A stretch of 64,000 bases of DNA from the sequence record PZ386965.1. The stretch is one strand, 5' to 3'. The notes beneath the pieces were generated by a model. It was given only the letters and a program-made list of their open reading frames with translations, did not search any database and was not told where the DNA came from. The translations under genes and the position numbers were made by a program. Source of the stretch: a phage. Below, piece after piece: positions 13,211 through 15,599 of the stretch (its first letter is position 1; every line of letters begins with the position of its first letter).

Positions 13211-13401
13211 TTCTTCACCTTTTTGTTAATCAAACGTTTACGGTATACAACTTTTTCTTTTGCTTTAAACTTTGACCGAGCTGTCTCGGCTTTAGTCCAT
13301 AGTAATCCAACTTCTTTAGGTTGTAAACCGATTTTTTGAGCAATTTCTACGAATGAAAATCCCGCCTCATGTAATGTATAAACTTCAACTTCAGCTCTCA
13401 T
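13207..13401 (-). CDS. hypothetical small HTH-like protein (position of T4 24.3)
   Basis: Track ORF begins at TTG; the internal ATG gives a 64-aa product with a basic C-terminus. Confidence 0.55.
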   Translation of the reverse strand: MRAEVEVYTLHEAGFSFVEIAQKIGLQPKEVGLLWTKAETARSKFKAKEKVVYRKRLINKKVKK

Positions 13402-13477
13402 AATCAATCCCGTATTATTTGGTTTGTGCCATTATATACATCAATCTCAAGTTGTGTTTTGTATGCTTTAAAAACGA

Positions 13478-13497
13478 AGAAAGGGGCCGAAGCCCCT
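13478..13497 (-). terminator. terminator downstream of hoc
   Basis: AGGGGC-UUCG-GCCCCU on the minus transcript, then a U-run. Confidence 0.7.
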
Positions 13498-13502
13498 TTC
13501 GA

Positions 13503-14921
13503 TTATGGATATGTATAGATGATACCAGTTTCCAAAGCAGTTTTATGGATGATGTATCCATTACGTGATTCTTGAACATCAACTTCTGGATAGTCTTTCA
13601 TCATTTTCTGAAGAGTGTAACGATGCAGGTAGTATTTACTATCTGGATCTTCAGTTTTCCAATCTTTACCTTCTTCAGTCATTTTTTGGATTTCATCCAT
13701 AACCCACCATCCGCACCAGATGTAAGCTGAAGTACGATGTGGAAGAGGATGAACATAAGGTAGTTCACCTTCTGGTTCTGGAGCAACTTTATCGGTTACC
13801 TGAACTTGACCTTCTGCTGTAATAGTTTTGCTATCGTAATCAGTTGCAGTAATAGTTGCAGTAACTTCAATAGTTTGACTTCCAATAGATGAGGTATCAA
13901 CAGTATATACATTAGTTGACCCTTCTACAGGAGAAGAATCTTTCTTCCATGAATACGCAATTTGCGCTTCTTCTGGAGCATCCGTAACATTAGCAGTAAA
14001 TGTAGCCGAAGCATCTTGCTGAACGTTAATAGAAGGAGGAGTCAATGTAACCCGTGGATTCATTGTCTTCTTATTAACCGTTAATGATACTTCATTCGAA
14101 GTAACTTCCTTTGCATCATAATCTGTCGCGGTTACTTGGGCTACACATTTAATTCTTTTTACTCCACTTGTAGTCGGAGTATAGCTAAATGTAGAGTTAG
14201 TTTCTCCACCAACCTGTGAATCATCTACATACCACTGATACGTAGCAGACGCTCCAACCGGTTGAGAAGCTAAGGCAGCAGTAAATTGAATAGCTGTTCC
14301 AATTACTCCGGCTGAAGGACTATTGGGAGTTACTGCCAACGTAGTTGTCTGTGTCTTTTTATTAACAGTCAGTGACACTTCATTAGAAGTAACGCTTAGT
14401 GCGTCATAATCTGTTGCGGTTACTTGAGCCACACACTTAATTCTTTTTACCCCGCTTTCGGCAGGAGTGTAATTGAACGTAGCGTTAGTTGCTTCGCCAA
14501 CAGGAGAATCATCTACATACCATTGATAAGTAGCGTTTGCGCCTGATGGCTGCGAAGCTAAAGCGGCAGTAAATTGAATAGCTGTTCCTATTACTCCAGC
14601 GTCAGGGCTATTAGGAGTTACAGCTAAGGTAGTCGTTTGTGTCTTGTTTTGAACTGTGATAGTTGTAGTAGCTTCTGCTGTTTCAGCTTCAGCTTCTGGA
14701 ACTGTATTTGTTGCAACTACTTTAATAGTCTTTTGACCGGCAGGTCCTTTTAGTACATAACTAAAAGTTGCTTCAGCTCCATCTTGTGGAACATCATCCA
14801 CAGACCAAGCATATGTAATAGGTCCATCTCCAGTTTGACCACTGGGTGTAGCAGTAAACTGCTTAGTCTCATCTATAACTCCAGTAGGTGTTTTAGGAGT
14901 TATATCAACTGTAAAAGCCAT
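13503..14921 (-). CDS. hoc: Hoc outer capsid decoration protein with an extra Ig-like domain
   Basis: 472 aa against 376 aa in T4; Ig-like repeats with a near-identical 96-aa tandem duplication; C-terminal capsid-binding region. Confidence 0.9.
   Translation of the reverse strand: MAFTVDITPKTPTGVIDETKQFTATPSGQTGDGPITYAWSVDDVPQDGAEATFSYVLKGPAGQKTIKVVATNTVPEAEAETAEATTTITVQNKTQTTTLAVTPNSPDAGVIGTAIQFTAALASQPSGANATYQWYVDDSPVGEATNATFNYTPAESGVKRIKCVAQVTATDYDALSVTSNEVSLTVNKKTQTTTLAVTPNSPSAGVIGTAIQFTAALASQPVGASATYQWYVDDSQVGGETNSTFSYTPTTSGVKRIKCVAQVTATDYDAKEVTSNEVSLTVNKKTMNPRVTLTPPSINVQQDASATFTANVTDAPEEAQIAYSWKKDSSPVEGSTNVYTVDTSSIGSQTIEVTATITATDYDSKTITAEGQVQVTDKVAPEPEGELPYVHPLPHRTSAYIWCGWWVMDEIQKMTEEGKDWKTEDPDSKYYLHRYTLQKMMKDYPEVDVQESRNGYIIHKTALETGIIYTYP
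14067..14642 (-). repeat. tandem duplication (2 x 288 nt) encoding Ig-like domains inside hoc
   Basis: Protein residues 94-189 and 190-285 are about 85-90 percent identical; the nucleotide repeat is visible directly. Confidence 0.85.
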
Positions 14922-14930
14922 AACTTATCC

Positions 14931-15599
14931 TTATTTTAATGTTACGAAAGAAGAATTACGAGTTTCACGAATTAGAACTGATCCATCGCGATTAATATAA
15001 TAAATTAAGCTAAATAATGTTTGGTGAGCAGAAGCATGCACAAAACTAGTTGGGCGAGATTTCCAATCTGGGGTTTCGGCTATCCATTGATAAATCCACC
15101 AAGGAACAGTAACATACCCTGGGCCTTTGCCTAATTTAATGAGTGTAGGACTAAAATTTTCAGGCAGAACAAAATTTACTTCTTTATTTACCTCTGTCTC
15201 AGGCTCTTTTTCAGATTCAACAACACGAGTAATTGCTTCTTCGAATTTATCGTGGTCGAATTCTTTTTCTTGTTCAACAACTTCTAATACTTCAACTTGT
15301 TCTGTCGGAGAATCAAACAACAGAATAGCTTCTTCTTTAACTTCTTCGTTGGTGAAATTAACACCATCCACATCATCTGCGGCAGTAATTAAATCGGTGA
15401 TAGATAATCCATCAGTTTCAGGTAATGGTTCATCAGCCAGTGCGTTAAGAGCTTCTTCGATATCAATAACAATATTATCGAATGATTTTGTTTTCTTAAC
15501 ACTAATACCAAATTGTTCCGCATATTCAAACAGTTTAGCTTTGGCTTCCTTTTTATCAGAAAGAGCACGTAACTCTTCAATATAGTCTTTATCGATCAT
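14931..15599 (-). CDS. inh: Inh, inhibitor of prohead protease
   Basis: 222 aa, acidic, T4 Inh size and position next to hoc. Confidence 0.85.
   Translation of the reverse strand: MIDKDYIEELRALSDKKEAKAKLFEYAEQFGISVKKTKSFDNIVIDIEEALNALADEPLPETDGLSITDLITAADDVDGVNFTNEEVKEEAILLFDSPTEQVEVLEVVEQEKEFDHDKFEEAITRVVESEKEPETEVNKEVNFVLPENFSPTLIKLGKGPGYVTVPWWIYQWIAETPDWKSRPTSFVHASAHQTLFSLIYYINRDGSVLIRETRNSSFVTLK

Follow-up and report, generated by a model that had tools for sequence, protein, structure and literature searches.

Background

In phages of the T4 type, Hoc is present as one copy at the centre of each gp23 hexamer of the mature capsid, and T4-like phages use the fibre that it forms to adhere to mucus and other surfaces. 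In this mucus-adherence (BAM-type) function mucin glycans are bound by the Ig-like domains of the protein. Hoc is also the chief scaffold for display in vaccine and nanoparticle research based on T4.

The T4 Hoc fibre measures 180 Å, and Hoc homologues carry between 1 and 10 Ig-like domains (Fokine et al. 2023, PMC10385173). PNJ-9 Hoc is without domain 3 (PMC11853027), the Klebsiella phage PMBT63 has a Hoc-like protein with an additional Ig domain, and the number of Hoc domains varies widely among T4-like phages (PMC13435897). The homologues described in these three studies share with the protein analysed here the same conserved C-terminal anchor and a variable string of Ig-like domains. However, those studies compare distant phages, whereas in the present case genes with one, two and three copies of a domain are found among near-identical alleles in two genera, which gain or lose one defined unit. 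The BACON repeats of crAss-like phages are reported (PMC6949934) to be likewise tandem carbohydrate-binding or Ig-like domains in a virion protein, treated as hotspots of evolution, but they belong to a different fold family and to different phages.

Here we present an analysis of hoc in a stretch of 64,000 nucleotides of phage DNA (sequence record PZ386965.1), which we call the window and whose positions are used throughout. The gene contains two tandem copies, units A and B, of the second Ig-like domain. We consider it probable that this hoc of a Mosigvirus is in the two-unit state of a copy-number-variable domain 2 array, which would be composed of old A and B paralogues and would undergo unequal recombination.

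Results and discussion

The hoc gene and its product

The 472-aa ORF at 13503-14921 on the minus strand is hoc. Its product matches the PHROG 'Hoc-like head decoration' (E 2e-148) and T4 Hoc (PDB 5vf3_Z, 376 aa; E 3e-235), and the gene shares 98.9% identity with the one annotated in phage moskry. The gene order, rnlB - 24.2 - 24.3 - hoc - inh, follows the same ORF layout as in the annotated moskry and T4 genomes; the ORFs downstream of hoc match RNA_ligase and T4_Rnl2_C (RNA ligase 2), and DUF2774, and inh was identified only via the annotation of homologous records.

T4 Hoc (PDB 5vf3, 8t1x; 376 aa) belongs to the same family, has the same gene position and the same C-terminal domain, and all its listed contacts are conserved in the window protein. 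Domain 1 (D1), unit B, domain 3 (D3) and the C-terminal domain align with it end to end at about 90% or more; the window protein differs in having unit A as an additional Ig-like domain, located between D1 and what is domain 2 (D2) in T4. In the alignment, query residues 1-135 correspond to T4 1-135 and query residues 189-472 to T4 93-376, with query 189-285 almost identical to T4 93-189. The two proteins thus differ in length by exactly one 96-aa unit, as the first-pass annotation of this DNA had proposed from the lengths of 472 and 376 aa. The parts of the gene are as follows:

13503..14921, minus strand: hoc CDS, 472 aa plus stop (highly immunogenic outer capsid protein), from the ORF, PHROG, T4 Hoc 5vf3_Z and the moskry gene
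14643..14921, minus strand: Ig-like domain 1, aa 1-93; aligns with T4 Hoc 1-93; AF2 beta-sandwich, pLDDT 82-93
14355..14642, minus strand: repeat unit A, aa 94-189; Ig-like domain 2 of the 'first-position' type; from the repeat search, the A-type clade and 16 diagnostic sites
14067..14354, minus strand: repeat unit B, aa 190-285, the Ig-like domain 2 type of T4, JS09 and AV116; from the repeat search and the tree
13794..14066, minus strand: Ig-like domain 3 in T4 numbering, aa 286-376, the fourth Ig domain here; aligns with T4 190-280
13503..13793, minus strand: C-terminal capsid-binding domain, aa 377-472, plus stop codon; aligns with T4 281-376

The N-terminal string of Ig-like domains is matched by the Pfam families PKD, Ig_2, Ig_3 and I-set; domain 3 accounts for Ig_3 and I-set matches at 289-373 and has an AF2 pLDDT of 84-92. 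The AF2 model, built from a 46-sequence alignment, contains four confident beta-sandwich domains over residues 1-376 (pLDDT about 85-94), with the C-terminal domain modelled poorly. When this model was compared with the PDB by Foldseek, it resembled strings of four Ig domains (Dscam, Sidekick, ICAM-5; E about 1e-12); the top 50 matches included no Hoc entry, and the search is informative for the fold class only. In the C-terminal domain the residues Y389, H391, R396, W405, W406, D409 and E451-S-R-N-G455 are kept. Their T4 counterparts are Y293, H295, R300, W309, W310, D313 and E355-G359, which are gp23 contacts or conserved positions (PMC10385173).

A tandem repeat of one Ig-like domain

A 288-nt direct repeat occupies 14064-14351 and 14352-14639 in tandem, and Tandem Repeats Finder gives it a period of 288, 2.0 copies and a score of 733. 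In codon register this corresponds to aa 94-189 and 190-285 (14067-14642), the coordinates given in the first-pass annotation, and the two units are adjacent, in frame and exactly one domain long. They are identical at 84 of 96 residues (87.5%) in protein and at 225 of 288 positions (78%) in DNA, which is less than the 85-90% nucleotide identity that had been estimated. Matches by codon position number 87, 86 and 52 of 96, so that third positions are only 54% identical, and the longest run identical between the two units is 23 nt. Units A and B are each 37-42% identical in protein to the other two Ig domains of Hoc, and the expectation that they resemble each other more closely than they resemble those domains was borne out (88% against 37-42%). 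The earlier observation is thus partly confirmed: the repeat is real and its nucleotide identity was overstated.

Distribution and copy number

A megablast search with the hoc gene recovered 657 phage records, from which an evenly spaced sample of 60 was taken; 52 of these cover the full gene. Two units (about 1419 nt) are present in 22 of the 52 genes and one unit (about 1131 nt) in the remaining 30, these genes coming from Tequatrovirus and Mosigvirus. Among the best 120 protein clusters, 8 are of 568-570 aa (P0001-P0008), 30 of 468-472 aa and 82 of 376-377 aa. The Hoc of 568-570 aa has three tandem 288-nt units, verified on DNA in three contigs (L046, L047 and L048; hoc at 601-2307). Many independent records contain the two-unit gene, among them moskry, the RefSeq teqskov and two phages of the BASEL collection. 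The deposited 472-aa Hoc proteins of moskry, mobillu, teqskov, Bas35 WilhelmHis, Bas47 AlbertHofmann, KRT47 and HP3 have the same two-unit architecture as the window, which differs from them only by point differences and a window-specific 5-nt patch, and the moskry record already marks a repeat_region across the units.

Given the published work on domain number and these deposited, annotated and near-identical 472-aa genes, the extra Ig domain in Hoc is an ordinary variant that is already known in kind, and of modest evolutionary interest. Our literature search found general variation in domain number only; it yielded no account of a 472-aa variant in the T4 group or of its A and B units, of how old these units are, of a polymorphism of one, two and three units in a single allele pool, or of repeated collapse.

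By its sequence the window is a Mosigvirus one, being 98.2% identical over 20 kb to phage mobillu and 97.9% to AV116. These closest genome relatives differ from each other in copy number, with two units in mobillu and one in AV116. Sliding-window identity further delimits an island around the gene:

13400..15116 (boundaries approximate), strand not applicable: island of about 1.7 kb comprising hoc and the 3' end of inh (about 185 nt)

The island is 90-100% identical to the Tequatrovirus phages teqskov, WilhelmHis and KRT47, against about 45-70% in its flanks (compare L023, L024 and L028). The pattern is reversed within Mosigvirus, where the flanks are 96-98% and hoc 89-99% identical. The hoc module appears to have been exchanged horizontally between Tequatrovirus and Mosigvirus.

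In three deposited genomes, L026 (SHFML-11), L033 (Ec_YwIITB1) and L035 (FriedrichZschokke), hoc is frameshifted or lies in two CDS; either loss of the gene, which is non-essential, or an error in sequencing could account for this.

Age of the A/B split

A comparison of units A and B of the window by the Nei-Gojobori method gives pS 0.60, dS 1.22, dN 0.098 and dN/dS 0.08, with the reservation that A/B dS estimates above 1 are imprecise. Across 15 two-unit genes the A-B dS ranges from 0.55 to 1.55. A units differ among themselves by a mean dS of 0.36 and B units by 0.31, as against 1.05 between A and B. In the same genes D1, D3 and the C-terminal domain show a mean allelic dS of 0.20-0.28 and a maximum of 0.55, so that the A-B divergence is about 4 times the allelic divergence in the rest of hoc. 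Set against that allelic dS, the A/B split is older than all of the sampled allelic diversity.

We extracted 53 units from 29 hoc genes, and 16 nucleotide sites set every first unit (A) apart from every second unit (B). In the neighbour-joining tree one clade (bootstrap 197/200) unites the first units of all two- and three-unit genes with three single units, and unit B of the window clusters with moskry_B, JS09_S and AV116_S. Orthologous A and B units, with A always first, were found in all 15 of the two-unit genes sampled, which come from two genera. Identity between A and B is 0.771 when both come from one genome and 0.773 when they come from different genomes, and in this test for concerted evolution we detected no general homogenisation of A and B, only short patches. 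The next Hoc lineage (IMG/VR, L005-L012), considered as an outgroup, is without a close homologue of this domain, and the split is accordingly left unrooted.

Since the units differ at 60% of their synonymous sites, have orthologues in two genera and have diverged beyond the allelic range, the sequences indicate that the duplication of Ig-like domain 2 is old and not recent. The high protein identity of A and B is then attributable to purifying selection on both copies and not to youth. This case cautions that repeats with high protein identity need not be recent duplications.

Single-unit genes and recombination between A and B

The junction ...AAG|ACA... (Lys|Thr) recurs at the D1/A, A/B and B/D3 boundaries and at the extra boundary of three-unit genes, and the ends of the A and B units are less diverged than their core. 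The single-unit genes are of several kinds. Those of T4, JS09, AV116, JK45 and RB5 are B-type, those of teqdroes, PYPS2T and L004 are A-type, and others are chimeric.

When painted against two-unit genes, four single units, those of JS09, ECO111, ZCEC15 and L003, are clean recombinants with a single A-to-B switch. Compared with moskry, the JS09 unit has 5 A-sites followed by 59 B-sites, and the corresponding in-silico recombinant matches it at 286 of 288 positions. For ECO111 against mobillu the switch falls at nt 120-131 and the recombinant matches at 280/288, where the best pure A reaches 252 and the best pure B 255. The switch is at about nt 108-119 in ZCEC15 against HP3 and at about nt 54-59 in L003. 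Units of this kind are what unequal homologous recombination between A and B should yield. The differing crossover positions argue for several independent recombination events, and on account of these single-switch recombinants the 376-aa forms look like collapse products.

Other single units are nearly pure or have a more complex history. The PYPS2T unit is nearly pure HP3_A, and that of RB5 equals SHFML11_B. A mosaic of the opposite orientation is found in teqdroes, which is B-like over the first 54 nt or so and then A-like; the T4 unit is B-type with an A-like 3' patch ('ALSV'); and the FriedrichZschokke unit has two A/B switches. In 81 single-unit protein clusters, classified by two weak marker positions (some genuine A units have Pro instead of Ser at position 33), the counts are 40 bb, 16 Ab, 15 AA and 10 bA. 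Together with the mosaics in both orientations, these counts imply that ordinary allelic recombination or gene conversion also shuffles the units. With the direction of change read from these sequence patterns, most 376-aa genes, probably including that of T4, would derive from a collapsed two-unit ancestor.

Thus, hoc has alleles with one, two and three units, and its single units are chimeric between neighbours, as in a copy-number-variable tandem array. The mechanism that we propose for such an array runs as follows. The A-B arrangement is common in a hoc allele pool shared by Tequatrovirus and Mosigvirus, where genes with one unit (376 aa, as in T4) coexist with genes of two units (472 aa) and of three (568 aa). 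Purifying selection would keep the A and B proteins alike while their synonymous sites approach saturation. Copy number would change through unequal homologous recombination between units, which the shared AAG|ACA junction and the conserved unit ends may aid. A crossover of A with B would leave one unit, either of the A or the B type or a chimera with an A-type 5' and a B-type 3' part, and a crossover near the unit ends would yield an added unit. The two-unit state would be ancestral to most one-unit genes.

Alternative explanations

The first-pass annotation had read the repeat as a recent in-frame duplication, which would have taken place in the window phage or its immediate ancestors starting from a T4-like Hoc with three Ig domains. 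In its favour, the units are adjacent and in frame, each has the length of one domain, and their protein identity is 87.5%. Against it stand the DNA identity of 78%, the 54% at third positions and the dS of 1.22, along with the orthologous A and B units in 15/15 two-unit genes of two genera, the A clade at 197/200 and the A-B layout shared by about 40% of related records. The synonymous divergence and the shared orthologous units refute a recent origin, to which we assign hardly any probability; the earlier interpretation is therefore partly supported, in that an in-frame duplication of one Ig-like domain did occur, while its dating as recent did not hold. The least probable explanation of all is that the repeat was falsely expanded during assembly. 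Repeats are in general prone to mis-assembly, but here 63 of 288 sites differ, the frame is intact and the same structure is present in many independent assemblies. Mis-assembly of a repeat cannot yield copies that differ at 22% of sites, and with the same two-unit gene in so many independent records we rejected an artefact.

A more serious alternative reverses the direction of change. The one-unit gene would be ancestral, and two old allelic classes, S_A and S_B, would have been joined once by unequal crossover at AAG|ACA, after which the two-unit gene spread; the chimeras would be products of equal crossovers between S_A and S_B. This would explain why pure A singles (teqdroes, PYPS2T and L004) and pure B singles (T4, RB5 and JK45) both occur and why A-to-b as well as b-to-A mosaics are observed, and, with units divergent from day one, a dS above 1 would not call for a very old array. 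However, it requires classes that are apart at a dS of about 1 in domain 2 alone, when D1, D3 and the C-terminal domain do not exceed 0.55. Moreover, A is always first, and the B-type singles of JS09, AV116 and JK45 are A-like over a short stretch at the 5' end, which is what a collapse would leave if D1 had been linked to unit A beforehand. We therefore regard a one-unit ancestor as unlikely. Rather less probable still is an import of unit A, or of its core codons 25-72, from a distant Hoc lineage by illegitimate or homeologous recombination. The hoc module clearly moves between genera, and A and B diverge chiefly in the unit core and are closer at the ends, both of which would suit an import. 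Yet no donor was found, the sole other Hoc lineage recovered being without a close homologue of the domain, and with 88% protein identity A and B are much closer than any other pair of domains.

Small conversion patches

Beyond unequal recombination in the preferred array of old paralogues, short exchanges between the units are apparent in the window:

14291..14295, minus strand: A-to-B gene-conversion patch in unit B, 5 nt, unit nt 60, 61, 63 and 64, from comparison with moskry_B

At these four sites unit B of the window differs from moskry_B and equals its own unit A, and the sequence is found in no other sampled B unit. The patch results in Pro21Ala and Val22Ile, and it is located where the runs of identity between units A and B are longest. 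From this comparison, the sole recent event in the window phage is a short A-to-B gene conversion.

At 14576 (unit A nt 67) the A units of the window and moskry have a B-type base, resulting in Glu23Gln, from which most sampled A units differ. This looks like a small reciprocal B-to-A conversion adjoining the A-to-B patch.

Possible insulation of units within arrays

In three-unit genes, units 2 and 3 are only 76-81% identical in DNA. Between genomes, pairs of the unit 2/3 type have a median identity of 87%, and almost all of them are as similar as, or closer than, co-resident units 2 and 3. Overall, co-resident units never exceed about 81% DNA identity, and similar units are never co-resident.

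A second Hoc lineage provides a comparable case. The hoc of L006 carries, at aa 186-279 and 280-373 (locus nt about 2056-2619), a tandem duplication of a different Ig unit, and this duplication is independent of that of the window. The pair is 80% identical in protein, 76% in DNA and 54% at third codon positions, the last as in the window. This second lineage, too, has forms of 282, 377 and 472 aa.

It is conceivable, though in our estimate doubtful, that Hoc domain 2 acts as a recombination-driven length switch by which populations of these highly recombinogenic phages continually produce fibres with 1, 2 or 3 units, and in which arrays persist only if their units are insulated from one another by synonymous divergence. 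The ceiling of about 81% between co-resident units, the divergence of units 2 and 3 and the 54% signature of L006 are consistent with a switch of this kind. Were it to operate, the textbook T4 Hoc with three Ig domains would be a collapsed derivative.

Functional implications

With the C-terminal anchor intact, the 472-aa Hoc should sit on gp23 hexamers as in T4, and its fibre should be one Ig domain longer than that of T4. A and B differ at 12 residues, which in the AF2 model fall mostly in predicted loops or strand ends; hence, the longer fibre would display two D2-type surfaces with different loops. That a longer fibre may alter binding is a reasonable suggestion. The residues S183-L184-T185 have been reported as a MUC2 contact in domain 2 of PNJ-9 Hoc (PMC11853027). 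An S-L-T motif is present in both units of the window, at residues 183-185 and 279-281 within 'NEVSLTVNKK', and by its likeness to PNJ-9 it may be treated as a candidate contact.

About four in ten natural T4-group hoc genes have an extra domain 2 unit, and some have two, with loop variants and turnover by recombination. Unit number and unit variants may be useful in comparing the mucus adherence of therapeutic phages and in choosing Hoc scaffolds. The known kind of protein is unchanged by these findings on its units.

Other features of the locus

The strand opposite to hoc has no ORF of 60 aa or more inside the repeat. The T4 late-promoter core TATAAATA is absent from the minus strand directly upstream of hoc and of inh; across the whole window TATAAATA occurs 19 times against 7.4 expected, with 15 of the occurrences on the plus strand. 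Within domain 3 of hoc, at 13836-13864, lies an imperfect 12-nt tandem repeat of 2.3 copies, and the homologous position carries a repeat_region annotation in moskry and mobillu.
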